From: Sphaeroforma arctica JP610
Lineage: Eukaryota
Assembly (NCBI RefSeq): GCF_001186125.1
Contig: NW_014040514.1
Coordinates: forward strand, 156,087 to 192,263
Length of the DNA: 36,177 nucleotides
Direction: 5' to 3'
Shown here piece by piece: positions 6,330-30,440 of the stretch. A program made the position numbers and the translations under genes. Position 1 is the stretch's first letter. Every line of letters starts with the position of its first letter. A model generated the notes under the pieces. That model was not told the origin of the DNA and ran no database searches. It worked only from the letters and a program-made list of their open reading frames with translations.

Positions 6330-6745
6330 AAAGGCCAGCAAGTGTATAGTCTTATGGTGGTAAACCCAATGTTTCATGTCCTTTCTTAAGAAACGTATTC
6401 ACAGCATTTGTGATTAGACATCAACAAGATGATGGAATAACTGAGGTAGATATGGTGAATAATTTTAGTAAGACAAGATAGCACTTGCCTTCGAGTTTGA
6501 AGCTTTTGTGAAACGTTGGAAGAATTAATTTATTATTGCAGTATATTTAGACCATCGTGGGATGACTAGGTAGTTCCCGTTGTCAAACAGGGCAGTTCAG
6601 CAGTAGAACTCATAGTGCCACCTTGTAGTGCCCAGTAGGTTCATAGACGGTGACCCTTTAGACTGGCATAGGGGTCTAATTGCGGGAACCCCTATTTTTA
6701 ACCCAATAGGCAAAACCACGCCGGGTTCAACATGAGATCCTCCGG
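6330..6745 (-). pseudogene. G1 degenerate Dam-like amino-methyltransferase domain
   Basis: Across stops and frameshifts: EDLMLNPAWF...GFPQLDPYAS..HRL*TYW...NYLVIPRWS...VNTFLKKGHETLGLPP*, collinear with the G2 and G3 MTase motifs. Confidence 0.65.
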
Positions 6746-6859
6746 ATAGGCAGTTGGATGCGTGCGAAGGAATGCGATGAACAAAGGTGGAGGTGTAGCA
6801 AGAGGTGTAGGCCAGGAGACTCGTTGGGTTGTGAACAGCATAATTGGGCCAATAGTTGC

Positions 6860-8960
6860 TGGAGCTCGTGACATCATATCAGCCTCAAAATTCCAGTCAC
6901 CCGGTATATGTCTGATATATATGTTGTGTCTTTGAACTTCCTCGACCAGGCGAAGAACCTGATCACCCCTAGTAGATACTGGGAATTTCATGTGTGGGTA
7001 GAAGAGAGATATAACGGACTTGTGATCAGTCCATACATTTAAAGGGTGGTAACTTGGTGTGATAGGGATTTCATCTTTATCAAAACCATATGCGATGGTT
7101 TCAAGGTCAAAGATACGATATCGAGACTGGGCAGGATTGGGCTTGGTAGAACGGTAAGTAACGGGGAAGAGTCAGTCGGCACCAGTAGTCTAAAACTTTT
7201 TCCTGGGTCAAGGAGAGGTTTTGAGTCCTGGTATAGTTATAGGACACGATAACTGTAGAGCTTTCTTTAAGTGAGTACTCTCGCGCCCTGAATGGTCAGG
7301 GCGACGTGCCGATTGACGCTTGGTAGGTGTTGGTCATCTGAGTGGCGGCTCCTTAGAAGAGGAAAGGATCTGCTGAAACATAAGATTGGCTTTCAAGGCA
7401 GAATCAGCTTGGTCCGCCCGTTTGGTACTGAGGGGCTGGTAATATCCATTTGGGAAAGCTTGGAAGGGGGTTCATCTTGACGCGGTATGCGCACGAAAAG
7501 TCCTGAACCAACATCAATGGGCCACACATCTACAAAGAGATGTAGATAATGGGAGGCTTCCGGAGTCAAAAGCATGATGACACCCTTAATGGCCTCTATA
7601 ACCTATCGGTAAGAAGCATATGTAGCAGCAGTGCATACGTAAGGTACCTTTTCCTTTGTCGAATCAGTGAGTGGCATAAAGATCGAAGCCATGTTTGGTA
7701 CAATGTACTGTGACTATCAAATCATGGTGGCACAGAACACTTAGACCGCCGGTCGAAGGGAGTTGAGGGCCTTTAAACGGACTTGACTAACAGCAGTATA
7801 TGTAGATGATGGGAGGCTTCCGGAGTCAAAAGCATGATGACACCCTTAATGGCCTCTATAACCTATCGGTAAGAAGCATATGTAGCAGCAGTGCATACGT
7901 AAGGTACCTTTTCCTTTGTCGAATCAGTGAGTGGCATAAAGATCGAAGCCATGTTTGGTACAATGTACTGTGACTATCAAATCATGGTGGCACAGAACAC
8001 TTAGACCGCCGGTCGAAGGGAGTTGAGGGCCTTTAAACGGACTTGACTAACAGCAGTATATGGATGTATTGTAACACGACAACAGTATGCTTTCATACTG
8101 TCACGTAAGAGACAAAGATGAGGTTTTGACGCACGTAAGCGTACACCAGCCTTGTAACAAATACGTACCTAAGTAGGCAAAAGATTTCTGTATCGAGTAC
8201 TTGCTCGTGTTCCCCAATGCGACATTGTACCGTAATCAACACGGTGGTGTAACACATCACGTAGGTGTTGGAAGGTCTCATCCTTGATAGACTGAAGTAT
8301 TAATGTCATCATCTCGACACCCAAAGTCCCGGTATTAGGACCAACCATCTTCTCCTGAGGTTATCCAGGTAAGATAATCTCTAGAGAATTCAGCGTGCAG
8401 GTTATATTCATTGTAGAAATGATGTCTGTCTCCACGACGTGTAGTAAACACATCAAAATACGATACTAAAACCTACTGAGTCTCCCTGAGGCTCAGTGCG
8501 GTGTATTTATTCTTATATTTGATTGTCTACGTGGTCTACAAATAATTCACCTCGTGTGAATTAATTGTAAACTAATTCTAACTCCACACTGATAGTGGTT
8601 TAAGGGGACTTTTACTACAGACGGATATGGTCATTTCATTCTTGTTTTGTTGGTAACGGGTAGGGATGTACATGAAAGTGTACATTATTGATTTTGAAAT
8701 TCTGGCAGTAGCGAATTTCCTTGGTAGAGGTAGGTATAACCCGAGGGTTGTTTTGGGCTAAGACTGCACTCGACATTCAGAGGCTATAAAAGTTTCCTTT
8801 TTCAATAATGCCTGGCTTGAAGTCTCGAGAACATATCATTTCTTCCTGTCAGCGTATAAGTTCTTGATTATTCTGTTTGTAGGTTTTACAATGAGTAGTA
8901 AAATTATCCACAAAAGGTATCTTAATTTCATACCCGTGAATACTATTGTAGTTATCTGGG
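6860..8960 (-). pseudogene. pol: G1 reverse transcriptase and RNase H remnants
   Basis: KPGIIEKG; KAGVRLRASK; YIVPNMASIFMPLTD; LHLFVD...VGSGLF; KPILCFSRS; VWTDHKS; IRHIPGDWNFEADMMSR. Confidence 0.8.
7541..8060. repeat. Near-perfect 260-bp tandem duplication inside G1 pol
   Basis: 7541-7800 and 7801-8060 are essentially identical; one difference seen near the start. Confidence 0.95.
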
Positions 8961-9544
8961 TTGTCAGGACGAATACAACACATACGATAAAATGAAAATT
9001 TTAGCTTTGGATTTGTTCACGTGTCTTATTGAGGATTACACGATCAACACCAGACCAGTCGTAAATTTTTACTTTCCCTGGTGTATCGCGGCACTTGCGG
9101 TGTAATTTCACAATTGATGCATCGTCAATCACCGCAGGAATCAAACACCCACATGAGGGATAAAAGCTGTCGAAGAAGTAGTAATTTGTTGTAACTCAAG
9201 ATGACTATCGATGACCTTTCGTCAGGAGATGTCGTGTTGGACATCATAGGTTCAATCAAATGCCAAGAGCCAGGGTCAACAAAGTCACAGGACGATTGAG
9301 ACAAGATGCGCGACTATAAGTGGTTCACGCACTGCTTCAATAGCTATTGAAAGTGCTTTTCCTTCATGGAACCAGTATTTTTCTTGGCCCAAAAATAAAC
9401 CGGGAGAGCATCATTGGAACGTAGGATCCACACATGAGATGAATCGAAATCGTTGTTGATGTTTCGAACCATCATGTAATTGAGAAGAGTCGTAAGTAGC
9501 TGAAAATCCCTATTCTCACTGTGAGAAGCAGCCTTTAGGTCAAT

Positions 9545-9619
9545 TGTAAAGGCACCGCAAATATTAAAAAATAAAATATGACATAGTATATATGTAAGCC
9601 ATTGCAACCAATTCACTCA
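9545..9619 (-). repeat. G1 5' LTR, left part
   Basis: TGTAAAGGCACCGCAAA...GCCATTGCAACCAATTCACTCA matches the 3751 LTR start and 3861-3882. Confidence 0.8.
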
Positions 9620-9698
9620 ATTACCAAGGCATACGACAAGGTGGCTCTCCCGCGCCTGTGGGTACTTCTGCGCCACCATGGAATACCCAAAAACTGGA

Positions 9699-9980
9699 TG
9701 TAGAGTTTGAGAGTAGCTCATAAGAAACGACCAGAAGAAACAATAGACCTCTTCTCAAGTGCGAATCCTACAGCTAGGTAAAGGTCCTAGGCTGAGATAT
9801 AATATTTTCTACACTAGACTCTCACACGAGTCCTGGTATCATCTACCGGTACTCCCGCTATATTTTTGATCACTCTATCATCAGAAATGTTGGATCCTAG
9901 ATCCAAAACTCAGTATTTGATGATCCTGGGGTTTGGATTTAGGATTGGCTGTTCTGATAATCTGGCCCCTGGATGCTACA
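9699..9980 (-). repeat. G2 3' LTR (282 bp, with small internal deletions)
   Basis: Direct repeat of 18551-18883 with TG...CA termini. Confidence 0.95.
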
Positions 9981-9990
9981 GCCCCCCAAC
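9981..9990 (-). other. G2 polypurine tract
   Basis: GTTGGGGGGC immediately precedes the 3' LTR in element orientation. Confidence 0.7.
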
Positions 9991-10255
9991 TTTATGCTTC
10001 TCAGCCTGCGTAGGAATAAAAAGTGACATCTTAAAGGACTGGATTATCTAGAGGTTGGTGTTTCGTACAGGGAAAAACTTGTCCCGTAGGGGGCATTGAA
10101 AAACCTGCCACCATTCTCTATTTTAACATATTACTTGTTAAATTAATTTATACTAAATAACAGGAGTACTCTACCACGCCCATCGGAGTCAGTCTTGACC
10201 TGTGCTCTCGGTCGATCTCAACTTGGCTTAGGGAAACACATCTCAACGGTGGCTC

Positions 10256-11660
10256 TCAACCGAGTCTTTGGTCCTTATACCTCTGGTGTGTGGGCAGAGC
10301 ATGCGTCAAGGTGAAAAAAGTGGGAGTGTCCTTTGGTGTCAGTGAAACTTGGCTAAGTTCCCGCCTCGTGCGCTGCCTGTTGCTCGCTGATCGTACATCA
10401 GTGCTGGTTGCTGTTGACTTCTTCGGCCTGGATTGCCTTCGCTTACGTCGTTTACTCTGTCGATATATCGTAAGAATATCTGGATCTGCGATGTCTGATT
10501 CATGTGTCCAGGTGCGCTCTCCATCTGTCCATTGCAGTAGGTAGTCCTGGGTTCCTCCGCCTCTTGTGGATTCTCTGTGGTCTAGTATGGAGGATAATTG
10601 AGTCTCTTCTGATGGTTGGACTTGATTGTTGGTAGTGAATTCTTCGGATTCGCTAGCCTTCTTGACTAACCCAATTAGCTCATCATTGACTGAGTTGGGA
10701 TATTCGGGGGCGCTAGTTCCATCAAGGTTACAGACGAAATATCCGTTGCCCTCTTTGCTTGCTATCTTGTATGGTCCTCCATATGGTGCTGTCATTTATC
10801 CATTTCACCTAGGCAACAAACCATCACAATATTCCCTTCTTGGAAGTGTACATACTTCTCTTGAAATTTTCGATCAAATGCTGCGCGCATTTTCTTTTGA
10901 TATTGTGCCACATTGGCGTCTAGTTGTGGTCGTATTGACTCTTCTAGATTCTATAGTCGTGTTTCCCATGGTGTTGTTGTACCCGGTGCATTGACTGTCG
11001 TGTCATAATTGGTGAGTTTGTTTTGTCGTCGCCCATAGTACACATTGAACCTTGGTGATTTGTGTCTGCGTGACGAACGGTGGTTGTGGCCCATTTGGAC
11101 AAATGGTAGGCGTGAGCACCAGCTGCCTGGATTTTGTTCAATAGAATTTCTTAGTAAAGGAATGAGGCCTCTGTGTGAGCGCTCCTTTGCTCCCATTACC
11201 TTGGGTTGATATGGTCTGGACACTAAGTGTTGTGACGGTGCCTGCTCAATGATTTTTGAGAGTATATCATTCACGTATTTTGTGCCCTGATCTGTCTGTA
11301 TGACTTGTGGAAATCAATGTTCACACATAATTGGAACTAGTGTTCGTGCAACAGTGGCTGCCGATTTGTCCATCATCGGTCTCAGTATAGCGTATGATGA
11401 ATACACATCTAGCCATACCAGGACGTACGTGTTGCCCATATTCGAGTCTACCAAGGGACCGATGGTATCCACTTGTATCCTATCGCCCGGGAATGCGGCT
11501 GTTATTGATTGTAAAGGGTGGAATCCTTTCTAGTGAATTTTTTTCTAGAGACATGGTACACAGCCCTCAATATATTGGTTGACATGTTCCTTCTGTCGAG
11601 ACCATGTGTGGCCATCTAGTGTGAGTTTGTTCACTGTTACTTCGGCAGTGTAGTGACCTA
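10256..11660 (-). pseudogene. G2 integrase with GPY/F motif and chromodomain (~10455-10600)
   Basis: IQVDTIGPL...YVLV; IQTDQGTKYVN; SRPYQPKVMGAKERSH; YGGPYKI; LSSILDHR...DYLLQWTDGERTWTHESDIADPDILTIY. Frameshifted. Confidence 0.9.
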
Positions 11661-11764
11661 CTGTGTAGAGCTATGAGTGTGGCTTTGTCTTCATACGTGA
11701 CTGTGTCTAGCTCTGCTGTTTCGTCCGCGATGTGTATGGGTGCAATGTTCACTGCTGGGTGTGT

Positions 11765-12159
11765 TAGTTTTTGGTCAAAATATGGAGACATGGTGTTTTG
11801 CCACAAGCTGCTGTGCCGTTCTTTAGGAATGTGTTGTTTGTGTTCTCGACTATCATCAGATCTTGTTCAAGTAATGACAAGAATTAAGGGAACCACGTTG
11901 CGCTTGGGTAGTATGGGACGCATATTGTAATGTATGTGGCTTCCTCTATGACTTTGTCTAACACGTCTGGTATAAGTTCCCAGGGAGGATTCGCCCATGC
12001 ATTTATTTCATCTGCCCACTTTTGTAGTAGCGCGTTTTGTACTTTGGTATAGAACTTTGCGGTCTGAGCATTGTGTGCAGCTGCAAATAAATCGATGGTG
12101 AATTTTTCAAACACGCGTTCTGCATCTTGAAAACCCCGTGGAGATAGTTTCCAGTCTAT
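11765..12159 (-). pseudogene. G2 Dam-like DNA amino-methyltransferase domain within pol
   Basis: In frame with RNase H: IDWKLSPRGF...FTIDLFAAAHNAQ..KFYT...NAL.Q.W...NAWANPPW (11980-11991)...ICVPYYPSATWFP*...NTFLKNGT..CGKTP. One internal TAA. Confidence 0.85.
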
Positions 12160-12269
12160 GGCAAACACTCGGATGGGCATGTTTGTTTCTAGGTCAGTGT
12201 ATTCTTGACCATTGTGTATGTGCTCATTGGCTTCTTTCAACACATTCGATGTTTTGATGTTGAATATGT

Positions 12270-14040
12270 CTTCATGTAATCGTGACAATTTGTCAGCTAC
12301 TTCATTATCTTTGCCTGGTACATGTATGATAGTGAAGTGGTGATGTAATGTTTTCGCTATCCATTTTGCGAGCATGGGATGCAGTGTTTGTTGTTTGTTC
12401 ATCTGGCATAACGCTTTGTGATCTGTCCACAATGTTATATCACCGCTCTTGATGTATTCCGAAAAAAATTACAGACTGTATACGAGTGCTAACAACTCTT
12501 TAGTATTTGTTCCATATCTTTGTTGTGCAGGGTTGAGACCTTTTGAGAAATAGAGTATATCTCTTCTGACTCCATCTGCAATTTGGAACAGATATCCTCC
12601 TATGCCATAGTCACTTGCGTCGTTCATGATCTGAAACGGTACTCCATCTACTGGGTACGCCAAAGTTGCTGAGCATGCAATGGCATGTTTGAGTTCTTCC
12701 CATTTCTTAATGAGTTCTGGTGTCCAAGGATTGGCTATGTTCTGATTATTTTTCCTTTTATGAGATTGTGGAAGTGTTTTGTTATGTGTGTGAACTGAGG
12801 TTTGTGGTCTCGCATGTAATTTGCTAGACCGACTGCTCGATGCAATTCTTGGCAGAGGCCAGTCAATCATGCGTTTCTGTTTCTCTGGGTCTGTTTTAAG
12901 CCCTTTGGTTGTTACTTTGACGCCTAGTATGTTGACTGTCTCGACTGCAAACGCACACTTGTTGTGATTTAGCCTGAAGTTGGCAGCATTAAGTCGTTTG
13001 ATGACTTCGCGTACTGTTTGTCTATGTTCTTCCTCTGTCATACTGGCAATGACCATGCCATCTGCATATACTTGTACTCCTTTAATGTCAATGAGGAGGT
13101 TGGCCATCACGCTTTGGAATTGTGCTGTTAATGAATGTAGTCCAAATGGAGCTGACTTGAACGAGTATTGTGCTCCTCTCCATGAAAATGTAAAGAAGTG
13201 TTGGCTATTCCCATGTACTTTATAGTGATGGAAGCCTCCAGTTAAGTCCAGTTTGGAAAAGAATTGTGCACCTTGTAGGTTGTGGAGTACTTCCTTTATT
13301 TTTGGTAATACGAATTTGTCTTGTTCATGTTAATAATTTACGTCTCGTAAGTCTAAACATGTGCGTACCTTCTTTAACAGACCTGTCTGTTCAAATTCTC
13401 CTATGGGTAGTAGTGGTAGATTCACTTGTGTGGATGTTGTTCTTTTATATATGTGTCCATCTTTGACCCATTTCTGACCGTTTTCATATGTTTGTGGTAT
13501 GTATTTGTGTTGAACAAAGTTCTCTTTAGCATGACGAATGTTCTTGGCTTTGACCTCAATCTTGATATCTCTACCACTGATCCTGGTAGATTGCAGTGTA
13601 CATCTGGTGGGACCTGACCATTTTGTTCTAGCAAGTCTGAGAGTGATTTTCTAAATCTTTCCTGTTCATGTTCAGGGTCTTCTTCATGTGGTGTGAGAAG
13701 TTATTCCCACTTGGCATCTGTTGGTATCAGTGGGTTGATTATCCCTGCTAGGTATATGCCTAAGTATGGTAGGATGTCCATACCTAATAGAATTGGTGAT
13801 TTCTTGTCTGGGAGGTCAAGTACCTCAAAGCAGTTTGACGTTTTTCTACCGCCGTAATTTATATCGCATACTTCTGTGGAACCTGTGTGTTGTACTCTTG
13901 CATCGGATTGTGCGAGTTGTATGTACCCAGGTTGTGCTTTTACAGATAAATGTAGTTCAGTTACTACACTTCGGTCCATACAAGAGCGTTGTGCTCCTGA
14001 GACTACTAGTGCATTCTATGTGGTGCCATTGATTTATATG
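12270..14040 (-). pseudogene. pol: G2 protease, reverse transcriptase and RNase H
   Basis: ALVVSGA (decayed DSG); ILLGMD; FSKLDLTGGFH; VYADG (YxDD-like); NDASDYGIGGYL; ELLALV; WTDHKAL; HVPGKDNEVADKLSR. Confidence 0.92.
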
Positions 14041-14099
14041 ACTATGTGCAATCTTTGGTCTCGTGGATTCGGAAGTAAAGAAATGGGTGTGTAAGCAAT

Positions 14100-15878
14100 A
14101 TCATTCGCATTTACTAACAACGTTTCTTCACCAGTGTGTGTGTTCACAATGTCTACCATGTTTATCATGTTAGCATCCGACCGCCAAGCTTTTCATCGAT
14201 CTTCATCCATCTCTTATACCTTATTGCCATTTGTAATGGCCAACTGGTCGATATGGACGGGTTGGTTTTGTCGCGCTGCTCGAGCTTCTGCCTTAAGGCG
14301 ATTGCTTTCGCCTTTGTTGGGGCATTTGCTGAACGCATGTGGTGAAGGGTTTATACCGCAGTGTGGGCAAGGTTGTGGTCCTCGCGATGCTGGGGTGTCA
14401 TTGGCCTGTCCTATGGAACGACCTCTGCCTTGCCCTCCTGGTGGACCTCCACCTCTTACCCCCTCTTGGTGATCTCCCCCTCTTGGTGATCTCCCCCTCT
14501 TGGTGATCTCCCCCTCTTGGTGATCTCCCCCTCTTGGTGATCTCCCCCTCTTGGGGATCTCCCCCCTCTGGGTGGACCTCCTGTAGGTATTTCTAGTCTT
14601 GGGCGAGTGGCTCGTGGTTCAAGAACAGTTGCGTTTCTCGCTCGCTCGTTTTCACGCTTGCGATTAGCTTGTAGTATTGTTGCTTGTCTGATCATGTCTT
14701 TAGTGAGATCATGAAACACCTTTTCTGAGATGTCAGACAAGTGTCCACTACTACCATCTGGTTTCGTCTGAGCTTTGATCAGTTGTCCGTTTCCGCTTGC
14801 AAACCGTACATGACTAGTACTTGGTAACGTGATGCTTTGAGGAATTGCCAATTGATAGCCACTCTCTCAGTAGTGCCCTTGTAGCGCTTCTCTAACTCAA
14901 ACATTGTGCGCCGCAACCGTGCTGCCCGTACTTTAACATTCATACGAGTGTCATATAAGTCGTTGAGCCACTTCTCTAGTAGATAGTCTACTGGAATGCG
15001 ACGCAGGTTGTCAATGATTAATATATTGTAGTCTTCCACATCAGTGAAGTCTTGCCAAAGCCTTTTGGTACTACGTATATTATTGAGTCTGACTGTCTGT
15101 CTGAGCAGCTCTTGTACTAGTGAGAGGCACTGTATTAGTGGCATGTTCGTGCTCGCGAACAGGTCTTTGGCTACAGATACAAACTCAATTGTGTCACGAC
15201 AATCAGCCATGCTGACATATTTGCCTACTGGCCACTTAGGGAACTCACTCATCTTGAGTAATTTGGAAGTTCTGGTTCTGATACTTTGTCCCCTGCGTGA
15301 GATCTAATTAGAGTTAACTCGCTCATAAAACTACTAATCGCAATGCACTCATCGTGATCACTTTTGTCGCAGTTCTTCATAGCTTTATTGTGTAGCTCTG
15401 CTAACCCCTCGTCTAATACTGGTATCACTCGCTTTGGTTGTTGGTCATGAACTACTTTGCGAAGTTTGTGGAGTGCTCGTATGTCAATGGGATCGTGTGC
15501 TGTTTGTGCATACAACTTGTCTACTAGTATGTCTACTATGTAGTAGTTGCACTCATAGATGGTCTTGTCCAAGACTATGTTGTACTTACTCATCGCTGGA
15601 TCCATTGGAGCTCTTGCTGGTGTGGACTCATCGTCCATGTGCATGTTGCCTTCTCTATTGGGTGGAGTGGTGGTACGAGAAGATGTCTGTGAAACTGGCA
15701 TCGTGTCTGCTTCTACCGGTCTTGTTCTGGCAGTGCGACTTGTGCTCCCCCGTGCGTGTGTACGACTTGAGCTTACTTGTGTGCGTAGGCTCCTTCGTGC
15801 TGCGTGTGTTCGTTGGTATAGCGCAGACGTCATTGACTGTTCTGTGTGATCAGTGTTCAATGCGATGTTAAAACTCAT
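14100..15878 (-). pseudogene. gag: G2 gag (frameshifted) with zinc knuckle
   Basis: Consecutive ORF pieces 15878-15249, 15252-14779 and 14851-14456 upstream of the protease; CPHCGINPSPHAFSKC knuckle at ~14325-14372. Confidence 0.75.
14459..14560. repeat. 17-bp minisatellite x6 (CCCCCTCTTGGTGATCT) in G2 gag
   Basis: Five exact units and one variant unit counted directly. Confidence 0.95.
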
Positions 15879-16698
15879 CGTATTCCCGAACTTATAATGT
15901 GTGGTTCGTTGGTAATGCGTTTGTTCTGTGTCAAAATCGATTTGTTACCTTGATGGGGCTTCCTCCGTGGTGTGCGGTGGCTGTGATGTACGCAGCGTGT
16001 ACCCCTGTTTGATTGAATTGACCGGAACCGTGGTACCTGGGTTTATTTTGGTTTTTTTTGGTTTGAGCTGATAAACTTTGGTTTCTGTCTCGAATTTGGG
16101 TATAAACTTGGTTGTCTGGTTTAGTCTTCTTGGTTTATGGTTTTTGTGTTTTTAAAATTTCTATGATTACGAAGATGCCAAAAATTCCTGGGCTTCTGGT
16201 TTTTTATTTCGTCCTATAGTCTTATACTGTGGTTGTACCGAACTTGGTTTTGTCTCTGTGCTTGTGCAGTATGCAATGTGTTGCATTTGGTTTGTGTACT
16301 TTCTATCACTATGTAGTCTGTTGTTGTTAGCATTGATGTCTTGTTCAAGACCGTCTGTTGTCCTTGTGTACTGTGACACTTGTGGTTATTGTATTGTGAT
16401 GCCTGTGCTTCTATATAATGTTTGGCGTTGTAATTTATTCAGCTCTTGTGTTTAGGCTATGCTGTACGTTGTGTGTGTGGCTTCATACGTCGTATATGTT
16501 TCTGATGTCTATGTTCTTACGATTGTGTATCGTATTCTTGAACTTGTGTGTCTATGGACTGTTGTGTCCCTGGACCGTGGACTGTGTTCTGTGATTGTGT
16601 GTGTTGATGCCACACCAAGGTGATTTCGTACTCAATTGTTGTACTTTGTTGTCCATGGAGTGTGGATCGTGCCTCTTAACCTTGTGTACTAGAGTAGA

Positions 16699-16818
16699 GC
16701 TTGGGATTGTGGAGTACAATACAAGTTATTTCGTGTAGCGCTTGTGATTGTGGAGTGCAACCCAAGTTATTTCGTGTAGCGCTTGTGATTGTGGAGTGCA
16801 ACCCAAGTTTATTTCGTG
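16699..16818. repeat. 41-bp tandem repeat x3 in the G2 leader
   Basis: Unit GCTTGTGATTGTGGAGTGCAACCCAAGTTATTTCGTGTAGC; a diverged copy lies near 17142. Confidence 0.9.
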
Positions 16819-18550
16819 CTCTTTGATATTGACACATACTTTTTCTATGATTCGTTGCGTTTTGCTGGTCCATGTGACTTTATGTTTTAAAACTAATTTA
16901 GCCGTTTGAATTTTTGAATGTCTGTGTCCATGGATTGTGGAGTGTGTTCTCGTAGTCATTACTGTTGTTCACACTACGTTTTTATGTGCACTTTATTCTT
17001 GTAAGTGAGTGGCCCTCGCGTGTGTACTAGTCTTCCTAGTTCTCACTGTGGCCAGAATTAAGCGTGAAGTGTACGCTATTGATGGATGCTAATGTCCATG
17101 GATTGTGGACTGTGTTTTCAATTCTTAGCTACGAGTGTATAGCTTGTGATTGCGGAGTTCAACCGAACTTACTTGTTCTCTCTTTAGCTTGGGGATTGTT
17201 ACTTTGTGACTTCCCCGTAATTAGTGGTGATTTGATGGTGTAGGTGATTTTATAGTGTGAATATGATGATTTCGCTTGAGTTTGGTGTTTCTAACCTTGT
17301 TTATGTCCGGCTACTTCTTTATCCTTGTTAGTTTCTGTGCTTGTTAGACACTGGTCCACTTTAGACGTCTGTATTCTGTGTTATGTTGTGTCTCTTGGTA
17401 TGAGATCGCACGATTTCTCCTCTGAGATGTTCAGTAAGATGCTCACCAGGTATGTGTGTGTCACCAGTTTGTTTGTTTCGTGCGAGTTGTTCTTTTCTTG
17501 GCTTGACGCGTTTTGTGTGCTTAATTCGTGTCGTAGTTTTAATTGAATTATGATTTGGTATATTTCATCGTTCTACATTTATGTACATCCGTTCTTCCCC
17601 GCTAGGTGTATACGTTGTATGACAAACGTAGGTTTTTTGTGTCTGATTTGAGGTTAGCCTGTTGATAAGTGAACTATTTTTCTTGTTCACGTATTGTGAT
17701 GTGATGTATATTACGTTAACTTCTTACTTCGCTTCTCTTGTCACCGTCTTGAAGTCTGATCACGTGTCTTGTCAAGTTCGAATTTGATTCTCCGTGCTCA
17801 TAGTTTGTTTTATATGTAGCTTTGTGTTTCCTTGTTCTACTAGTTCTTCTAACTTTAGTTGTCAATTCTTTAGTAGGATCTTTATGATATATTTTATAAT
17901 GTCTGCTTTTACTTAGTTGTGATTTCATATGTACAATCTAAGTTTAGCATGCCCCTAACCCGTACTTGAGTGTTGTTGCAGGCACCGTGAATTCCTCTTT
18001 GTAATTCTCCTGTGTTTTTGTCCTCTGACTTTGGTTCTTTGTGTCTCCCTAGCCCCTCTGTAGTTGAGTGTTAGTTAGTCTGGATACGTACAGAGCTTCT
18101 TTCTCTTGATAGTCTATAAAAATAAAGAAGATATCACTGTGACACTTTCTTGAACTTTCTACGTTCCCAACTTTGAACTTTGGTTTTATCTGTATATTAA
18201 GCAAGTTGTCACTGTGACACTTTTGTGTTTTTTTAATGTCTGAACATAAACAATAAGTTGGGTGCGCTGTTTCTAACGCTTGTTTTGCCAAGAGTACTTG
18301 CCTTAGCTCACCCTAGTCTTACTTACTTGTTTTGTGGCAGTGTGATATCTTAGGACGAGCTTGGCGTCTTGGACACTTAATCTTTTCGGTGAAGTTTCTC
18401 TTGTTCTTCCCTACTTCCTGTTGTGTTCTCCGTCCCTCCCTCTGATTGTTCTGCGGCTTCGATATCAAGTAGTCTTCAAGTTCTATCATTCTAGTTTTGT
18501 TAATATTCTTAACTATACTAGACTTACCGTGGTAAAGATATTGTTAAAAA

Positions 18551-18883
18551 TGTAGAGTTTGAGAGTAGTCCATAAGGTACGACCAGAAGAAACAATAGAT
18601 CTCTTCTCAAGTGCGAATCCTACAGCTAGGTAAAAGTCTTAGGCTGAAGGACTCGCATTGAGTCTTGTTTGGTGTTTAGTATTTTCTACACTAGACCCAA
18701 TATTTGCTTAAGTGTTTCTCTCACACGCGGGAGTCCCGGTATCATCTACAGGTATTCCCGTTATATGTCTGATCACTCTATCATCAGAAATATTGGATCC
18801 TAGATCCAAAACTCAGTATTTGATGATCCTGGGTTTTGGGTTTAGGATTGGTTTCTCTGATAATATGGCCCCTGGATGCTACA
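18551..18883 (-). repeat. G2 5' LTR (333 bp)
   Basis: Direct repeat of 9699-9980, followed by TSD TGGA. Confidence 0.95.
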
Positions 18884-20837
18884 TGGATCAACTGCATCCG
18901 CGCACTATTTGAGAGGGTCCCTACCCGAGTGACATTCCGCGACAAAAGCTCTCGCCTATATTTCATAGAACGAATGGCATCCTACAAGGCTGAATCGTTG
19001 GCCCCCAGCTCTGTATTGTCTACATGGATTCCTTGGCTGTCACGCTACCACAGTTCCGGCCCAAGCTTCCCCAGTCTTATCTATTTATCGACGACACACG
19101 GATCCAAGCCCCCCAACCGGTTCCACTCCAGCCCTTCTTAGACGACATTGATGCATGGGGACACAAATATGGCCTCGAACAGGGTGTCATCAAACTCTGG
19201 GTACGATCTACTGACTTGCGACCCGCGGCGCCAACCCTCCGCATAAAAGGTGAGCTTATCATACCGACGCTCGCCGATGCATCTTGGAACACACGTTACC
19301 TCCCCCCTGAAGATATTACCCGGAGTTCCCACTCCCCCACGAAATATCAGGGATCAATCTCGCCAGACATGGAATCCCTGATTGCAGCATTGTCTCTTGG
19401 TATCGCCTCCTTCCGCGCTTATGGCTTCCGTGGCTTCAGCTGGCGACACCCCTGCAATCGGCTGGTGCTGTTCAAAACATTCATTTTATCCACGGCTACA
19501 TATGGCCTGAACATTCTTGTCTGGGCTCCGCCTATATGGAAGGATGCGTTGGACCTCCTGTTCGAGCGCTATAACTCAGCACTCATACAAACAGCAGCCA
19601 TCATCACGGGCACTAAATATTCTAGGTTTTCCAAACATAAAAAGAACTTACTCCACTTTTGTGGCCTGCTCCCCACACGACCATTCGCGGACTACCTCGG
19701 AGGTTGCCTGGGAATACAACTCGACTCAATGGCCAGCATAAACCCACTCACCCCTCTGACGCAACCCGCCTGGGCCCACAACAAACCATCATTGCGCTTC
19801 CCGTACAGTATCTATGCCTACCTGAAAACTGTATACAAAACCACGGGCGGGCACACACCCGACCATGTAGCCATCCGCCGACGCTGTGACGACATTAGGA
19901 AAAACTCAACGAAACGATGGTCCAACAAGGAGATCGCGGCAGTTACCCGGCGCCAATACTACTACTAACTGGTCATGGGCAAATTGCCAACCTCAAATCG
20001 GGACAAAGCCAGACACGACTGCTTCAATCGCTGCTTCGAGCCTACACCAATCCGGCTATGTGCTGTCGATAGTTGTAACAAATACGTACATGTTGTATTC
20101 ACATTGATCGACTACCGCACCGACGGCTGTCTCTGCCCTGTCTGCCCCGGTGGCCCCAAATTCACCACCAGCCGCTTAACCTGCGCCCAGGAACTGATCC
20201 GACACACCCTGGTAGGTCCAAAACTGCTTCCCATTGGCCCCGACCTCTTCCAGCAATCACAGGGGCGCCAGGATTTCTACGGTATCTGGACCCTTTACAA
20301 ACACCTGGTATCCTTTCTAGCATGCAAAACAGCCTCCGTACCCACACTTGTCTCTGACACATCAACAAATGTTCCCCATACCCCGGCTAATCACGCTGTT
20401 GAAGTACTACTTCCAAATTTCGGTCTAAACCAAGTCATCGCGTCTGTTGATTCCGCCTATGATACTTCCGATCCAGGTCAACCAGCACATACCGAGTGCA
20501 TCCGTGGTCTGGTGCGGTATCGGTTCACTCCCAAACTCGCTCCTCAACCGAATTATGATGGATAACCTGGTCCTACTCGACATTTCGTACTCTGCACTAA
20601 CCCTTTCCACGGCACTACACGGTGCAGACCCGGTTCGTACCACAACACAAGGTGGGCACTCTACTTAGTAGGTCAGCAAGCGAATACGTGGCACACTCGA
20701 TGATGTCAGTTTTTTGTCAGCACCAGCCTGAATTGACCCAACGCATATCCTCCGTCGTCGACTCACTTGGCCCAAACTTCAAACGTGAATTTACTAACCA
20801 CTTCTTCTCATCGATCTTTCCCGAACCTCTACAATGA
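18884..20837 (+). pseudogene. Non-LTR RT ORF, C-terminal part (RT, thumb, Cys-rich region, extension)
   Basis: ORFs 19024-19968 and 19975-20565 in the same frame, separated by one stop; FIDD; LFKTFILSTATYG; CPVC. Confidence 0.8.
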
Positions 20838-20902
20838 CTGTGAGGGCATACCATATGTACAAACATTGTAACTTATCTCTTTTGAAATAAATATTATTAT
20901 CT

Positions 20903-21031
20903 CTATTTACACTCCAGAAGTCGACCATTAGCAATCCTGTTGGCCAACACAAAAGTGGCGCGCCAAAAGGTCAACGAAAGATTTTCGGAAACGGTTGTTG
21001 AGGTTTCTCAATCAGAGGTAGGCGGTTTTAA
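20903..21031 (-). repeat. G1 5' LTR, right part
   Basis: CTATTTAC...AGCAATCCTGTTGGCCAACA...ATCAGAGGTAGGC...GGTTTTA matches 3883-4018. Confidence 0.85.
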
Positions 21032-22474
21032 TATCTATTTTTCTGCTCGACTATTGGTTTTTAAATACGATTAACATCATATACTACACTCCTGCCCCAA
21101 GCATCTGTATAGTAATCATTTTCAAGTTTTGAATCCTATCGATTGTAATGAGCTCATTAGACCATTGTATAGTAGTCATGTTGTACGTTTGGACTGCCGG
21201 GCTGCTTCTTGCAAAATGTGCTGGTCAAAAACATAGTCACGGGGCAAGAGTCACAGAATAGTCAATTTTGTGCTCAATGAACACCATTAGATGCTACATA
21301 GGCTGCTAATTAGCAGAACGTGTATATCATCATCACGTCCTTACAAGTGATATCACCAACTACCCCTTTGACAATACTAATACTAGTGTGGTGGAAACAA
21401 TGACGAATCCACAACAGGTCAGCTCGGCCCATTTGACTAAATTTATCTACTCAATAGACTTCCAAGTAGCGCAGGGTCGCGAGCGAGAAAAGTGTGGTAC
21501 ACACAGTATCACAAAGTAAGTCGGCAACAACATGGGCCAAAGGAAGATATAGATCAAAACCGAGTAGGGATAAACGTACACAAGCAAACACATATATAGA
21601 TTCTATACAGCCGTGTGGACAAAGTACCCTAGACGGAGATTTAGGATCGTGCTAGAGGACCGGACCTATACGAAAATTTTAGGACTGGACCAGAGAACCA
21701 GACTTAAGTGAATTATTACAGGACCGCCTCAAAGGATGAATCTTCGGACGTCATCATAATTTAGTAACTAAGAGACCAGAACCATAGATATAAGTATTTT
21801 CACAATCACCCGTTGTTAGAGATAATTTTGCCCCATATAGGAACGTGATAAATAAATACAGCAGGCGCGCTATCCAAAATGGCACTTCCGACCGAGTTCA
21901 CTTATTTCAGACTTAACACTTTTTACTAAGCGTACTCGGTTTGTACTACAGACATATCCCGATGCATTAGTTGCAGTCGAATCGTGCGGTTATCGTGGTC
22001 CGTGCAAGTATCTCATCCATCCATAACTACGACCAATTCTCACATATTTAAATTTATTGCGTATCTTAGCAAAATGTGCTCTCTAGATAGCACTAACATC
22101 CAACCCGTCCGTCTCACTACATTCAACTCTAGGTTTCAACAATCACGTATTCAGATACTTCTGCTGGGAATGTATAGACATCACTAGGGTGGTATTTAGG
22201 TCTCCCTTTTTTATTGTGTAAAAAGTAGACCCCTTTGCGGTGATAGATTATGATCTAGCTGCCACGCAACAAGGCGGAAGTGACAACAATGGCAAAACTG
22301 GTGGTTCAGGTGGAACATATAGCAATGATAGTGGTGGAAACAATGAAATAATGGCTCCAATGGTCAAGACAGCGATAATGATTCATCGGATGATGACGAT
22401 GAGAATGTAGGAGGGGGGCAACAATCTAACCAACGAACAGAAAACCCATGTCAGCAGGCACGTCGGCAGCCTCC

Positions 22475-24184: not shown

Positions 24185-24298
24185 TCATTGAATTGAAGTG
24201 ATTGTAGTGGGTTTGTTTACTATCTTGCTTGACTTGAGCATGCTGAGTGTGATCATAGTAGCTGCACATTTCTTATTTAATATTACGGAAAAATTATT
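24185..24298 (-). pseudogene. Probable displaced C-terminal tail of the P-like transposase
   Basis: Joining 33106 to 24298 gives in-frame MINTLH|NNFSVILNKK...SIQ*. Confidence 0.55.
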
Positions 24299-25034
24299 CC
24301 TCCACATTAGTATTTTGGAATATAAACGTACTCTTAAAAATACGTAAAACGTACTCTTAAAAGACGTAAACTTAGGTTTTCCTTAAATGGGTTTTAACGG
24401 TTTTTATTAATTAAATACATTTTCCAATTTACATATCAGATATTTGGACAAGGCCATTAAAAGGCCTCAGTAAAATACCAAATATAAGGTTTGTATTAGT
24501 TATATTAATAGAACTATATTTACCTTCCAAATCCATATCTGAATACTTCGGTAGCGAGATGGCTAAACTGAACATAGGTTTCTAAGGACTATTAGCGTTG
24601 CTTAGTTTATCCTCCGTTCAGCCAACAAGATGTGCCAGTCTGATGAAGGCCAAGTCGGTAATTCTTGATAACTGGCAAGTTAATGGTTAATGCAATAACA
24701 ATGGACATAAAGAGTTATATATAAAAATCTTCTCATGATAGGATTTTATCAGTTTCTCGGATTAGCCCCAACGAAATATACCATAATTTCTAATAGAGCG
24801 ACAACGAAAAACTAAATAAAATCCCTTCGGCGAAAACAGTACTGAGAGGATTATATGTAGGCAATGTCTCAGCCTCACAATCCCTCAGAGTATTGCTGTT
24901 TTCACGAGACATACCTAACTTTACTAAAAGACTCATTTCGTTTATTTACTCTTAAATTTTGATATCCTTAGACTTAACCTAAGAGTTTATTTACTCTAAG
25001 GCGTTAATATCCCCTTATTAGACCAAAACTTGCA
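24299..25034 (+). repeat. G3 5' LTR (5'-clipped)
   Basis: Direct repeat of 32389-33105. Confidence 0.92.
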
Positions 25035-25161
25035 CATTTTAAAGTTAGTAAAGGTATTAACTACTTAGACTACTTTAACGTAAAGGTAGATAACTACCAC
25101 GAAATTTTTCTTAAGCACAGTCATTCCTTAAAATAATAGACTGAAGTCATAAGTTAAGATT

Positions 25162-27400
25162 ATGACTGAGAAAGACAATACACCTGCAAAGAAACGCAAG
25201 GCCGAACGTAAGAAAATGGAGAGAGAAGCCGCTAGCGCTGCCGCAGAAGTAACCGCAGCTGCTGCCGATGCGTTTAACCGCACCGTAGCCGAAGCACTTG
25301 TGTCCGACAATAATAGCCAGGACAATGCTTCATATAAGGATGTAGCCACTCCGATTAAGAAGACTACTCCTACAGATGGAGCCCGAGGGCCAACTATTGC
25401 CTCAACTTCGAAGCTCACATTTGCGAAGCCAAGAAGTGAGACAAGGAACACGTCTCAAGACGCCCCAATCAACTATTCTGATGAAGCTCAGAAAGAAAAG
25501 TCCCCAATTATAGGGGACAAAGACGAATATCAGAAGGTACCTATACCGGAACCAGAAGAGGAGGCAAGCTCAAGTGGCAAACCCGAATCTACGTCCGAGA
25601 CAACTGAGCCAACGCGCATAAGTTAGTTAACTACTGAAAACACTGATCTGATGAATCAGTTAGCCGCCCTTATGAAAGGCATGCCTGTTGAACATGTAGA
25701 TCGAATGTATGGATCAGGAAAGCACGCACAGCACTTACGCGAGCATGTTTATCCGGACACTACTGAAGCCCTACAAAAGTGGACAGGACGTCGGCTGACA
25801 ATTACGCCCGAAAAGCGTAAGGACCTGAGCGCCAAACCTGTGGCAGATAACCCAGATGTGCTCAGCGTAACTATACCTTACGAGGAGCTACCACCAGATG
25901 TCCAGGAACTCTATTCGCCTGTTCTTTCACCCGGCCATGAGTAGCATGTCCTTGAGGGTATTATAGACCCAGAGGCAGGTAGAAACGCTCCGCCACCTTT
26001 ACCCAACTGGGATGACAATCGTCGGAAACCAGTTAAGACTGGGTATGTCATCCAGACGCATGAATCATCTAAGATTTTAATACCAACTGCTATCCAAGGA
26101 ACAGAGCACCGAAAGGCCTCGATCATGGACTTTACACGGGGTAATAAACATTCCCGTAAACGTGTTAACGATGTCGAATTTAATCGCTTCGATCGCACCG
26201 CCTTACACTAACCCGCAGAGGATTTCACTCTGACGAGGTGACCGAACTTAATAAATCGGTCAACGAGTACACCATTAAGATGGAAATCGCCCATGACGTG
26301 CACCGTGCCGATGACGTATCATATTTTACTATTATGATCGCGATTAAGCATAAGCGCATCGATCAACTACTTCAGGCCCAACGTGGACAAGACCGCCGGG
26401 ATAACCAGAAGTACAAGGGACAGATCAGTCGACTTAAGTCGAACTGGGATGCCAACAGTAAGCAGGTCGAGTTTATAAACAACCATGACCTCGACACGCT
26501 AACCCGTACGCTTAATACGTTTACGGTCATGCTGGAGACGAATGATATCGCTCCCCAGCAATGGATTTATGCTTTAATGCAATCGTTTGACCCTACGGAA
26601 CAAGTTACTTGATCCTGCAGCGACACCAGCTTGAGCTAGACACTTGTCGTGACTGACCGGCTGTGTGTTAGTTGGTTACGTCCTTATTAAGCAAGGACAT
26701 GCGCAGTGCAGTACTGATTTCAATCTTAACTGAACCAGTTGAAAATAATTGCATTCAGAGTTACATTCTGAAACTTGATGCTGACCTTAAACGTCCAGAT
26801 ATAACAAAGGACAAGGCTCAGCGATGGTACGAGTTCCTGGTTATGCATGTTTTCTGTAAGAACATAGAGAACAACGACCGTGAAAGTCTGTACACCGAGT
26901 TGCGACGTAAGTACGCAACTGAGGCTCGAGATAAGGGACATGAAACAAAGTTTCATCTATCCCGACTTACGTGGGAACAGTTTTATGATACTGTATCCAC
27001 TCTTTCCCCCGCACACCGAGTAACCTCGAAGGGAAAGGCGGTAAATAAGAAACCACACGAGCTCCCTGATCAAGGATACCTCTCACACCAGACGTCAGAT
27101 GATAAGCCTCATCAGACGCGTCCTAACCAGACACGTGCTTGCGACTCTACTCAATCAACGCGACCCAATAAACGGGCACGCGCGGAGCCGAAGAACAAGG
27201 AACCTCCATATAAGGATATTAAGAAATATGCCGACGCACAGTGTGGGTATGACATGTACCAATTGACCCCTAACGGTTATTGGAACGGAAGACATGCACC
27301 CACCTGTACACACTTGTTTATTTAGTGCGACAAGTGTGAGAAAACCAATGGCTACCAGACCAAGTCTTGCGACAAGAAGCCCGACATTAAGTTGGAGTGA
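25162..27400 (+). pseudogene. gag: G3 gag (long, fragmented)
   Basis: Chain of plus-strand ORF pieces from ATG 25162; decayed knuckle CDKCEKTNGYQTKSC just before the protease. Confidence 0.7.
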
Positions 27401-27474
27401 AAGTACTACCAGGTACAATCGCTACAAAGAAAATACGACTACTTAGATGAGCGTGTAATAATACCTATATATTA

Positions 27475-28545
27475 CAACGGAAATAAAGTCCTTGCATTGA
27501 TTGATCATGGTTCAGAAATTTCATGTACATCCGACCGCTTTGCATTAATGAAAGACATTGAAAGGCGAACTCGAACTACTCACCTAATTTTAGTAGATGA
27601 TTAAACTTCTATTTGTGATACCATGGTCACATATGTTAGAATCTCCATGGCCGATGATAGGAATATCACTACCCAAGCTGTGATCGTTAAGATGTCACAG
27701 AAGTACGACATTATAGTCGGAATGAGCGATTTGCTCACGTTAGGGGTAACCGTAACAGGCCTACCCAACAACATAGATCCATTAAAGGATCAGTCAGACG
27801 ATAGTTGTCTAAAACCATATACACCACCATCGGACACAGTCAAGGAACTAATTCCTGGCTTTGGCGATAAGATAATGGATCTTATATTAGTAAATAAGAA
27901 GATAAAAATGACCGACTGGGCGAATCAACGGAAATAAAGTCCTTGCATTGATTGATCATGGTTCAGAAATTTCATGTATATCCGACCGCTTTGCATTAAT
28001 GAAAGACATTGAAAGGCGAACTCGAACTACTCACCTAATTTTAGTAGATGATTAAACTTCTGTATGTGATACCATGGCCACATATGTTAGAATCTCCCTG
28101 GCCGAAGTCCTTGCATTGATTGATCATGGTTTAGAAATTTCATGTATATCCGACCGCTTTGCATTAATGAAAGACATTGAAAGGCAAACTCGAACTACTC
28201 ACCTAATTTTAGTAGATGATTAAACTTCTATATGTATTACCATGACCACATATGTTAGAATCTCCCTGGCCGATGATAGGAATATCACTACCAAAGCTGT
28301 GATCGTTAAGATGTCACAAAAGTACGACATTATAGTCGGAATGAGCGATTTGCTCACGTTAGGGATAACCGTAACAGGCCTACCCAACAATATAGATCCA
28401 TTAAAGGATCAGTCAGACGATAACTGTCTAAAATCATATACACCACCATCGGACACAGTCAAGGAACTAATTCCTGGCTTTGCCGATAAGATAATGGATC
28501 TTATATTAGTAAATAAGAAGATAAAAATGACCGACTGGGCGAATT
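27475..28545 (+). repeat. Triplicated protease region in G3 (copies start ~27475, ~27926, ~28105)
   Basis: VLALIDHG(S/L)EISC occurs three times, each followed by the same in-frame DD* stop. Confidence 0.9.
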
Positions 28546-30000
28546 TCCGGTGTAACGACGGATACGTCAGCCTTGACTTAACCAAGGTAGATTTTACTAC
28601 GCTCAAATGTCCTTCAAGAAGCTATGTTTCTTGGAGACACGAAGTTGTAGTTAAAGAACAAGTCGAGAAATCGTTATCTGATAGGGTAATCGAAATCAAT
28701 TGCCAACAAACGCCAGTTAACTTAGCATTATTGGCAGTTGATCAGCATAACTCTGACGGAACATTTAAGAAAGTCAGAGTATGTCTAGATATGAGCCCAA
28801 TAAATAAGTTATTGCCGACTCATAGTTTTCATCTCCCTCGTATAAACGAGTTACTGAGACGAATGGAAGGTGCTGACAAGGGTATCATCAATTGCAAATT
28901 TATGAACCCCATCGGAAGTACTTTAGTTTAACTTGGAAAGGTAAACAATACAGGTTTAGAGGAGCACCTTTGGGGTTGCGCTCTTTACCAGCATTTTTCC
29001 AACAAGTAACGGAGGAAATGTTTGCAGACATGCCTAACGTGCAAGTCTATATAGATAACATAGTCATCTTTTCTAAGACTAAGGGCGAACATACCGCATT
29101 AGTCAAACGAGCCCTTCAGAGACTCAACGAACAAACCTTCAAGATTAACGAGAAGAAATGTCACTTCGCAATGAGCGAAATAATGCTCTTAGGCTATCGT
29201 ATATCTGGGTAATGTATTAATATCGACCCTGGTAAGGTGGAACACCTGTTAGATTGATTAACACCAACTACAGGAAGAGATGTGAACAGCATGTGTGGGT
29301 TTGTAAACTTCTTTTCAGATGGAGTACCGCACTTAGCTGAATATCTTAAACCCTTTGGACATTTAAAATGTCATAAAGGCNNNNNNNNNNNNNNNNNNNN
29401 NNNNNNNNNNNNNNNNNNNNNNNNNNNNNNNNNNNNNNNNNNNNNNNNNNNNNNNNNNNNNNNNNNNNNNNNNNNNNNNNNNNNNNNNNNNNNNNNNNNN
29501 NNNNNNNNNNNNNNNNNNNNNNNNNNNNNNNNNNNNNNNNNNNNNNNNNNNNNNNNNNNNNNNNNNNNNNNNNNNNNNNNNNNNNNNNNNNNNNNNNNNN
29601 NNNNNNNNNNNNNNNNNNNCCAGTCGATGGCGTGCCTTTTGAAATAGCAACGGACGCATCAGACTTAGCACTCGGAGGAGTACTATACCAGGTTATAGAT
29701 AATAAACATAGGTATATACAATTCTTAAGCCGAGCAATGAATGCATCACAGTTGAATTACCCAAGTGTGAAGCAAGAGCTACTAGCCATAGTAGCAGCTT
29801 TAACACATTTCCACGATTACTTATACGGAACAGCATTTACGCTGATGTGTGATCCGAAATCTCTTCAATATATGAAAGAGATGAAACCCGACTCACAATT
29901 ACTGAGTCGCTGGCAAGATACAATATCAAAGTTTAATTTTGATATAAAACATCTGCCAGGAATATATAACCATTTGCCGGATATGTTATCACGCTTTGTA
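28242..30000 (+). pseudogene. pol: G3 reverse transcriptase and RNase H (spans an N gap)
   Basis: RVCLDMSPIN; YRFRGAPLGL; VYIDNIVIFS; TDASDLALGGVL; ELLAIV; HLPGIYNHLPDMLSR. Confidence 0.93.
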
Positions 30001-30036
30001 CCGGACTTTAATAAATCCATACGTGAGTTACTAGCC

Positions 30037-30440
30037 ACTGACTGGAAGTGTAATCCCAGGTGGTTTGAACTGGCTCAAAAGATATTTGGGCCACATACAA
30101 TTGACATGTTTGCTGTACATCATAATGCACAACTATCGAATTACAGGACTTTAAATCATCCTTTGGGAGACGCCTTTCAAATAGACCTCTCCAAACATAA
30201 TGCGTGGGCTAATCCACTATGGCAGTTAATTACCCAGCTATTAAATTATGATCATATACACAAAGCTACCATCACGTTGTGCTGCCCACTACAGAGTAAA
30301 GATCCATGGCTCAATAAATTGATAAGCATGATACAATGCGAGCCAATATATTTAGATAGGGAAGTAGATACTTTCCTATATCATGGTACCCGAGCCGTCC
30401 AGAAGACGCCCTGGAGACATACTATAATATGTCGTATAGG
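30037..30440 (+). CDS. G3 Dam-like DNA amino-methyltransferase domain, open and in frame with RNase H
   Basis: TDWKCNPRWF...FGPHTIDMFAVHHNAQLSNY...DAFQIDLS..NAWANPLW (30211-30222)...TLCCP....PW...DTFLYHGT...KTPW. Confidence 0.85.

Follow-up and report, generated by a model that had tools for sequence, protein, structure and literature searches.

The window analysed here is a stretch of 36,177 nucleotides from Sphaeroforma arctica JP610 (contig NW_014040514.1, positions 156,087 to 192,263). It consists almost entirely of transposon debris, in which three long terminal repeat (LTR) retrotransposons, G1, G2 and G3, were recognised. No host gene is present in the window, no tRNA genes were found in it, and no DNMT match was obtained in the window frames scanned with Pfam. 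In the Pol polyprotein of G2 and G3, both Ty3/Gypsy elements, RNase H and integrase are separated by a Dam-like methyltransferase domain. G1 is probably a further Ty3 copy with this domain, older than the other two and more distant. The Pols of all three copies are broken by stops and frameshifts, so these copies are dead. They are also nested: G2 lies inside a LINE-like (long interspersed nuclear element) remnant, which itself sits inside the 5′ LTR of G1. Neither the decay nor the nesting had been mentioned in an earlier reading of the same DNA, the first-pass annotation.

Two Ty3/Gypsy elements with a Dam-like domain

Both G2 and G3 show the order protease (PR), reverse transcriptase (RT), RNase H (RH), Dam, integrase (IN). 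Their features, in window coordinates, are as follows.

9699-18883, minus strand: G2, whole element, Ty3/Gypsy, decayed
9699..9980, minus strand: G2 3′ LTR, TG..CA ends, polypurine tract inside
10439..10612, minus strand: G2 divergent chromodomain, PF00385 E 0.0015, below cut-off
11007..11664, minus strand: G2 integrase, zinc finger and DDE core, with stops
11781..12168, minus strand: G2 Dam-like adenine methyltransferase domain, DLFA..NPPW, one in-frame stop
12273..14054, minus strand: G2 protease, RT and RNase H, with stops and frameshifts
18551..18883, minus strand: G2 5′ LTR, 333 bp
~24299-33105, plus strand: G3, whole element, Ty3/Gypsy, decayed
24299..25045, plus strand: G3 5′ LTR, 5′ end eroded
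27452..29995, plus strand: G3 protease (locally duplicated), RT and RNase H, assembly gap at 29381-29619
30031..30442, plus strand: G3 Dam-like domain, DMFA..NPLW, open frame continuous with RNase H
30874..31823, plus strand: G3 integrase, zinc finger, DDE core and GPY/F, rve E 6e-9, with stops
32374..33105, plus strand: G3 3′ LTR, ~732 bp, TG..CA ends, preceded by a polypurine tract

The Dam-like domain of G2 follows RNase H directly in the same open frame and matches PF05869 at E 5e-13 (49.5-53.1 bits; cut-off 28.1). The G2 integrase was recognised by rve (E 0.006) and by a profile of the clade described below (217 bits). For the G3 domain, the PF05869 match is below the cut-off (18.8 bits, E 0.0014), and the clade profile gives 153 bits. 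The motif NPLW is specific to the G3 copy in the window, since G3-family copies in two sequencing runs read NPPW. The LTR pairs retain 261 of 283 aligned bases in G2 and 92% identity over 704 bp in G3; a target-site duplication (TSD), of 4 bp, was seen for G2 only among the three elements. The LTR types of G1, G2 and G3 (268, 333 and ~732 bp) gave no cross-match in a self-blastn search at E<1e-4. The first-pass annotation had described apparently unrelated LTRs of 268, 333 and 730 bp and, in both G2 and G3, a Dam-like domain followed by a DDE integrase, and these descriptions were confirmed.

G3 belongs to a large family: in one run, 15,752 contigs fell on 1.9 kb of G3, compared with 2 on 1.1 kb of G1 (contig counts, which are not copy numbers). 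No RNA data set was listed that contains the G3 stretch. In its 5′ region (15950-18550) G2 has a leader of 2.6 kb, strongly strand-skewed and containing repeats of 41-42 bp; at the end of gag (14442-14594) lies a 17-bp tandem array.

Intact relatives, phylogeny and the chromodomain

Intact relatives of both elements were recovered from protein databases. A HMMER profile scan of 1.84 billion representatives returned 8103 matches at E<=0.001, 16 of them at 1e-30, and the best 150 of the 8103 were examined. A search with the G2 domain yielded four proteins from 23 candidates; two are complete 1288-residue Pols, 75-76% identical over the query, in which protease, RT, RNase H, Dam and integrase all score above the Pfam cut-off. 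PF05869 scored 56.2 and 53.8 bits in the intact G2-family Pols P0001 and P0002. A further profile search gave P0023, an intact G3 relative that is 69-72% identical over the domain and lies just under the PF05869 cut-off (26.2 bits, E 7e-6). Among 183 rows (180 proteins plus 3 frames of the window), 19 database proteins show the complete order PR-RT-RH-Dam-IN-chromodomain in one frame. Among the 37 integrase-bearing database proteins, near-duplicates included, 34 have NPPW or NPPF, the other three giving no pattern match, and the DxFA motif is kept in most integrase-bearing proteins across families only 30-45% alike. Selection was judged from protein identities per domain. Between P0001 and P0023 these are 47% for the methylase, 41% for RT, 39% for RNase H and 29% for integrase, so across the two families the methylase holds up as well as the core enzymes; the methylase is more conserved than the linker between RNase H and Dam in three of four pairs, with a tie in P0001 versus P0002. 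Together with the closer pair P0001 and P0002, in which the methylase is less conserved than RT, such values would fit purifying selection on the domain, weaker than that on RT.

Trees were computed with a quick IQ-TREE procedure and supported by SH-aLRT, a likelihood-ratio test of branches. The methylase tree had 68 rows, six near-duplicate rows and most short matches being left out, and it groups G2 with the S. arctica proteins SARC_00333 and SARC_09892 (SH-aLRT 99); 86 of 105 residues (82%) of the G2 domain are identical to SARC_09892, which by itself points to Sphaeroforma or a near relative as the likely host. A 30-row clade (93) holds G2, G3, both of these proteins and Awhi_evm2s11263 of Abeoforma whisleri, and includes none of the 26 DIRS-like rows. 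In the RT tree of 43 rows, the 21 members of the methylase clade that have an RT again form one clade (97), the A. whisleri protein included, and the G2/G3 clade is apart from 14 DIRS-like rows (99). Because of this split and the PR-RT-RH-IN order, the RT of G2 and G3 is assigned to the Ty3/Gypsy type, apart from DIRS. G2 and G3 are only ~33-38% identical in RT, RNase H and methylase, so the old, diversified clade of integrase-type elements proposed in the first-pass annotation is upheld for these two. One capture followed by vertical diversification would fit the G2/G3 clade.

Elements of this kind were reported in May 2026 by Fernandez-Moreno et al. (bioRxiv 10.64898/2026.05.21.726589), who claim the first Dam in non-DIRS LTR elements and define five DAM-LTR lineages, one of them ichthyosporean (Pirum gemmata, A. 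whisleri and S. arctica). We regard it as nearly certain that G2 and G3 are DAM-LTRs and, from the named homologues in the trees, consider with high confidence that they belong to the ichthyosporean lineage; no Pirum protein was named among the matches. The first-pass annotation had thought the architecture possibly novel, provided it had not been catalogued for this lineage. It has been, in 10.64898/2026.05.21.726589, and novelty is not supported. We found no earlier account of Gypsy elements with Dam in the literature searched, which left most subscription journals outside its coverage. The Gypsy-Dam architecture was new until May 2026 and has since been described with methylome data (10.64898/2026.05.21.726589).

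The main text of the preprint describes the ichthyosporean lineage as lacking chromodomains, although its figures and supplements may bear on this point. C-terminal segments were available for 14 of 24 matches plus G2, namely for G2 itself and 13 clade members, and all 14 align on a chromodomain pattern. PF00385 matched 12 of the 14 segments at E<0.1 (best 2e-6), G2 among them. With a profile built from the segments, E<0.01 was reached by 64 PDB sequences; the 60 listed are all chromodomain proteins, including the chromodomains of cpSRP43, HP1 and CBX (best E 9e-12). The same motif occurs in the segment of P0038, a protein of A. whisleri. By these comparisons the clade is predicted to end in a chromodomain, contrary to 10.64898/2026.05.21.726589. 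In whole-protein scans of clade members the Chromo score is under the Pfam cut-off, which would explain why the domain was missed at the 1e-5 threshold used in that study. A possible chromodomain remnant in G3 is not claimed: it scored 20.5 bits, had no separate null and stayed short of 22.5, the highest value in the G1-region null. By eye, a single aromatic cage residue, the middle one, is kept in the G2 family, as in group II chromovirus domains, while a P0003-like subfamily keeps three.

The searches also returned Dam domains in other settings. P0128 (Dam at 619-684) and P0145 (656-727) are Ty1/Copia-type polyproteins with RVT_2, a retroviral SH3 and a zinc knuckle. In both, Dam scores above cut-off and has NPPW; it precedes the protease in one protein and follows it in the other. 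These proteins possibly represent an undescribed Copia-type carrier class. The word "copia" is absent from the main text of 10.64898/2026.05.21.726589 (figures and supplements may bear on this). P0050 and P0069 combine an AP-endonuclease, Dam, RT, RNase H and an integrase zinc finger and may correspond to the Euglena-type mixed elements of the same preprint, and P0030 of Olpidium bornovanus has a dUTPase, then a Dam-like domain (NPPF), then a protease-like tail. Of 149 confirmed metagenome loci, 80 were kept, at most 39% identical over long matches, and an integrase lies near the Dam match in 13 of the 80. Dam follows integrase in 12 loci (L025, L026, L031, L062, L064, L065, L067, L070, L072, L074, L076 and L077) and precedes RT in L048, so Dam occurs at three different Pol positions. 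Viral contigs gave 38 pattern matches, none of which was confirmed.

The G1 remnant and the rest of the window

G1 is the most decayed of the three elements. Its recognisable parts are listed together with the LINE-like remnant that interrupts it.

3751..4018, minus strand: G1 3′ LTR, 268 bp, TG..CA ends, purine tract just inside
5358..5567, minus strand: G1 integrase zinc-finger remnant (weak), tblastn with P0111 E 0.025
6330..6748, minus strand: G1 probable Dam-like remnant, DLMLNPAWF..LDPYA..IPRW..NTFLKKG over three frames
6864..7171, minus strand: G1 RNase H, PF17917 E 3e-4, below cut-off
8639..8812, minus strand: G1 RT N-terminal remnant, 25.5 bits, 0 of 60 shuffles as high
9545..9625, minus strand: G1 5′ LTR, first piece, aligns to 3750-3893, split by the LINE insertion
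20900..21035, minus strand: G1 5′ LTR, second piece, 112 of 131 bases identical to 3880-4021
18884..20890, plus strand: LINE-like non-LTR remnant split by G2, RVT_1 E 6e-4, with a short upstream piece at ~9620-9698

By eye, the LINE RT motifs resume across the G2 insertion. In G1 itself, the Dam-like segment lies directly after RNase H. A frameshift-aware comparison with a broad methylase profile gave 20.1 bits, collinear over profile positions 6-137 of 166, and none of 40 shuffles and 52 other window stretches scored as high in a first test. Against the clade profile the segment scored 23.3 bits, above all 40 shuffles and 52 other stretches. P0048, an RT-RH-Dam-IN-chromodomain protein, matches both ends of the segment in tblastn (E 0.08 and 0.001), and its two matches are 109 residues apart, compared with 111 codons in G1. 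Single contigs from three of four runs match 6200-7300 without difference (the window's own source is possibly among them), and the breaks in this region are therefore not assembly errors.

A different explanation would be a decayed linker in which the motifs arose by chance; the domain would then be confined to G2 and G3. Pfam detected no Dam in the three frames of the segment, no integrase in three frames downstream and no RT in three frames upstream; the catalytic position reads IPRW, not NPPW, and the motif is not intact. The 20.1-bit score was reached by 13 of 300 shuffles in a larger test, and no second copy of the segment at >=80% identity was found in the contigs of four runs, where only a 44-bp related piece occurs; such an absence is weak evidence. 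Set against this are the position after RNase H, the order of the motifs along the profile, the spacing of the P0048 matches and the clade-profile score, and we think chance motifs unlikely and a true Dam remnant likely.

The position of G1 relative to G2 and G3 is less clear. The 27-row group containing both of them does not include the G1 RNase H, which sits on a branch of 2.7, too long for it to be placed. The integrase core motifs were read by eye only: against the clade integrase profile the core scored 14.9 bits, below the null mean of 15.9, and 39 of 60 shuffles were as high. A chromodomain profile test was likewise null (268 of 300 shuffles as high). The first-pass annotation had given G1 a Dam-like domain with a DDE integrase and had joined all three elements in one clade. 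For G1, the weak collinear profile match and the P0048 matches support the Dam-like part, with no Dam or integrase found by Pfam; the clade stands for G2 and G3 in both trees, and membership of G1 was not established. G1 may represent a separate lineage.

A frame at 4200-4640 in G1 was considered as a tyrosine recombinase and rejected, as it has no Pfam match. A 260-bp tandem duplication inside G1 (7540-8062, 99.6% identical) was rejected as an LTR; the spanning contigs of three runs stop at ~7578, as expected from a real repeat there. Elsewhere in the window, G3-family and G2-family LTR fragments lie at the start (56-161 and 363-636; ~90% and 71-75% identical), and a further Ty3 RT-RNase H remnant with weak profile matches at 1200-1700 (minus strand). 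At 1972-3679, imperfect 43-bp inverted repeats flank a 347-bp tandem duplication, a possible DNA transposon remnant; the duplication has a motif that we take to be Ulp1-protease-like, without a Pfam match. A 455-residue frame at 33954-35318 (minus strand) matches the N-terminal part of a TNP-like RNase H (E 1.7e-5) and is likely a remnant of a P-element/THAP9-type transposase.

Fold, function and comparison with known systems

The Dam-like domain of P0001, an intact relative and not a copy in the window, was modelled with AlphaFold from a 40-row alignment (pLDDT 95.4). The domain is predicted to be a class I, S-adenosylmethionine (SAM)-dependent amino-methyltransferase of Rossmann fold, with the SAM-binding motif ahead of NPPY/W/F. 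Foldseek placed PCIF1/CAPAM cap-specific adenosine methyltransferases first (E 2.5e-4; TM 0.66-0.73 over the query), followed by KsgA/Dim1. When the top 1000 chains were re-aligned, PCIF1 reached Z 10.0-10.9 (best: root-mean-square deviation 2.5, 119 aligned), human DIMT1 9.6 and T4 Dam 8.1 (rank 47). A PDB sequence search with the methylase profile gave no match at E<=1. The Rossmann methyltransferase of the Dam family postulated in the first-pass annotation thus agrees with the PF05869 matches, the pLDDT of the P0001 model and the Z values of 8-11 to methyltransferases. The predicted fold does not establish DNA as the substrate.

Our best explanation is that G2 and G3 are dead Ty3/Gypsy elements with Dam between RNase H and integrase, active copies of which would mark their own reverse-transcription product with N6-methyladenine (6mA); the chances that this explanation is right appear to us evenly balanced, and we hold the DNA self-marking mechanism at the same level. 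A DIRS-type domain would have been captured once, anciently, and then diversified vertically. Made as part of Pol, it would be packaged in the particle, as packaging of Pol is general Ty3 biology. There it would bind SAM and methylate N6 of adenines in the cDNA or RNA:DNA hybrid, so that new insertions would start 6mA-marked and transcribed. A chromodomain would add chromatin targeting. After integration, host AMT1 would maintain the mark and keep the copies in transcribed chromatin, as in the published model of cDNA or hybrid methylation maintained by AMT1 (10.64898/2026.05.21.726589). The 6mA self-marking proposed in the first-pass annotation is this published model. According to the same preprint, DAM-LTRs co-occur with AMT1 in 9 of 13 species, and DAM-LTR copies of S. 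arctica and A. whisleri are more 6mA-methylated and more expressed than other LTR elements.

Several points weigh against this explanation. The 6mA and expression enrichment is correlative, and the expression test in E. coli raised no 6mA (10.64898/2026.05.21.726589). The closest solved structure is the RNA enzyme PCIF1/CAPAM, with T4 Dam only at rank 47. Between the close relatives P0001 and P0002, RT is better conserved than the domain (94% versus 77%). Our trees carry SH-aLRT values only, with no bootstrap, and midpoint roots; the support of 93 for the 30-row methylase clade is under the starred level, and "DIRS-like" is a label by domain content alone (RT-RH-Dam without integrase). The chromodomain of the G2 family contradicts the published description of the lineage. 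G1 is marginal, given the larger shuffle test, and attempts to find an intact relative of it gave none of 107 candidates at E<=0.001 in a protein search and 122 pattern matches, none confirmed, in a metagenome scan, each of which is weak evidence.

The domain could alternatively be a PCIF1-like RNA methyltransferase whose targets are adenines next to the cap or further inside the element's genomic RNA, or in the RNA strand of the hybrid, and which aids stability, packaging or reverse transcription; the DNA 6mA on DAM-LTRs would then be a host AMT1 mark following transcription. The structural ranking, with KsgA/Dim1/Erm (Z up to 9.6) next after PCIF1/CAPAM, points in this direction, as do weak PCIF1_WW Pfam matches on the related proteins P0090 and P0164 and the size of the domain, 135 residues without an evident DNA target-recognition module. 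By Iyer et al. (PMC4738411), DIRS methylase domains are placed in the PCIF1 clade and considered likely inactive. RNA activity of PCIF1 type, if real, would explain the failed DNA assay. However, likeness of fold does not disclose the substrate, and the RNA methylase rows differ from T4 Dam by no more than 1-2 Z. PF05869, a family from phages, owes its name to DNA methylation, and the co-occurrence with AMT1 also speaks for DNA. We consider an RNA substrate unlikely, if the most serious competitor for the function of the domain.

Somewhat less likely still is a non-catalytic module, either a binder of nucleic acid or protein or a structural connector between RNase H and integrase. The assignment of DIRS copies as likely inactive (PMC4738411) and the negative E. 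coli assay would agree with it, whereas the retention of NPPW/F in 34 of 37 proteins and of DxFA in most, across such divergent families, and the NPPW of other G3-family copies where the window copy reads NPLW, argue for catalysis. We view as improbable a combined scenario in which Dam is a PCIF1-type RNA methyltransferase acting on the element's own RNA genome in the particle, the chromodomain was overlooked and G1 is an independent second capture. One could also suspect that nested insertion or misassembly produced the architecture, a DIRS fragment having dropped into Gypsy copies, as the window is a nest of insertions with assembly gaps. We hold this to be next to inconceivable, given the open frame joining RNase H and Dam in G2 and G3, the 19 database proteins with the full order in one frame and the exact contigs over G1 6200-7300 (the window's own source possibly among them); for G2 and G3 the intact single-frame relatives refute it.

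A self-marking Dam in the families of G2 and G3 is the explanation we prefer. The architecture is already known, in this very lineage, and the additions made here are the chromodomain, the PCIF1-like fold, a possible separate G1 lineage and two Copia-type Pols. Were the domain to mark cDNA with 6mA, retrotransposons would be able to label themselves with an "active chromatin" signal; were RNA its substrate, the LTR life cycle would gain a new step. The intact natural Pols P0001, P0002 and P0023 are ready substrates for an activity test. The chromodomain corrects the published description, and Copia-type carriers would widen the known range of Dam elements.

Among known systems, Gypsy-DNMT3 and DIRS-DNMT elements (de Mendoza et al. 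2018, PMC5890265) likewise carry a captured DNA methyltransferase in a retrotransposon Pol, but theirs are C5-cytosine enzymes. In PMC6338049, Dam is attributed to DIRS, and cytosine methylases are attributed to both Gypsy and DIRS. PCIF1/CAPAM has the closest solved fold to the P0001 domain, at 12-18% identity, whereas the retrotransposon domain lacks the WW and helical domains. DIRS elements share the PF05869 domain directly after RNase H, an RT-RH-MT (methyltransferase) architecture described in PMC3783388; they are without protease and DDE integrase and have inverted terminal repeats, unlike G2 and G3, which have a protease, a DDE integrase, direct LTRs and, in G2, a TSD. The Chlorophyta DAM-chromovirus-like and Chloro-Ochrophyta DAM-LTR clades also have Dam between RT and integrase, the first with a chromodomain, but are separate captures according to 10.64898/2026.05.21.726589; the G1 remnant best matches P0048, an RT-RH-Dam-IN-chromodomain protein outside the G2/G3 clade. 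The ichthyosporean DAM-LTRs are closest. The elements of the window differ from their description by the chromodomain in G2, by being dead copies and by G1, which is not clearly in the clade; they share with them the Ty3/Gypsy type with PF05869 and a DDE integrase, the NPP triplet, a single clade and 82% identity to SARC_09892.

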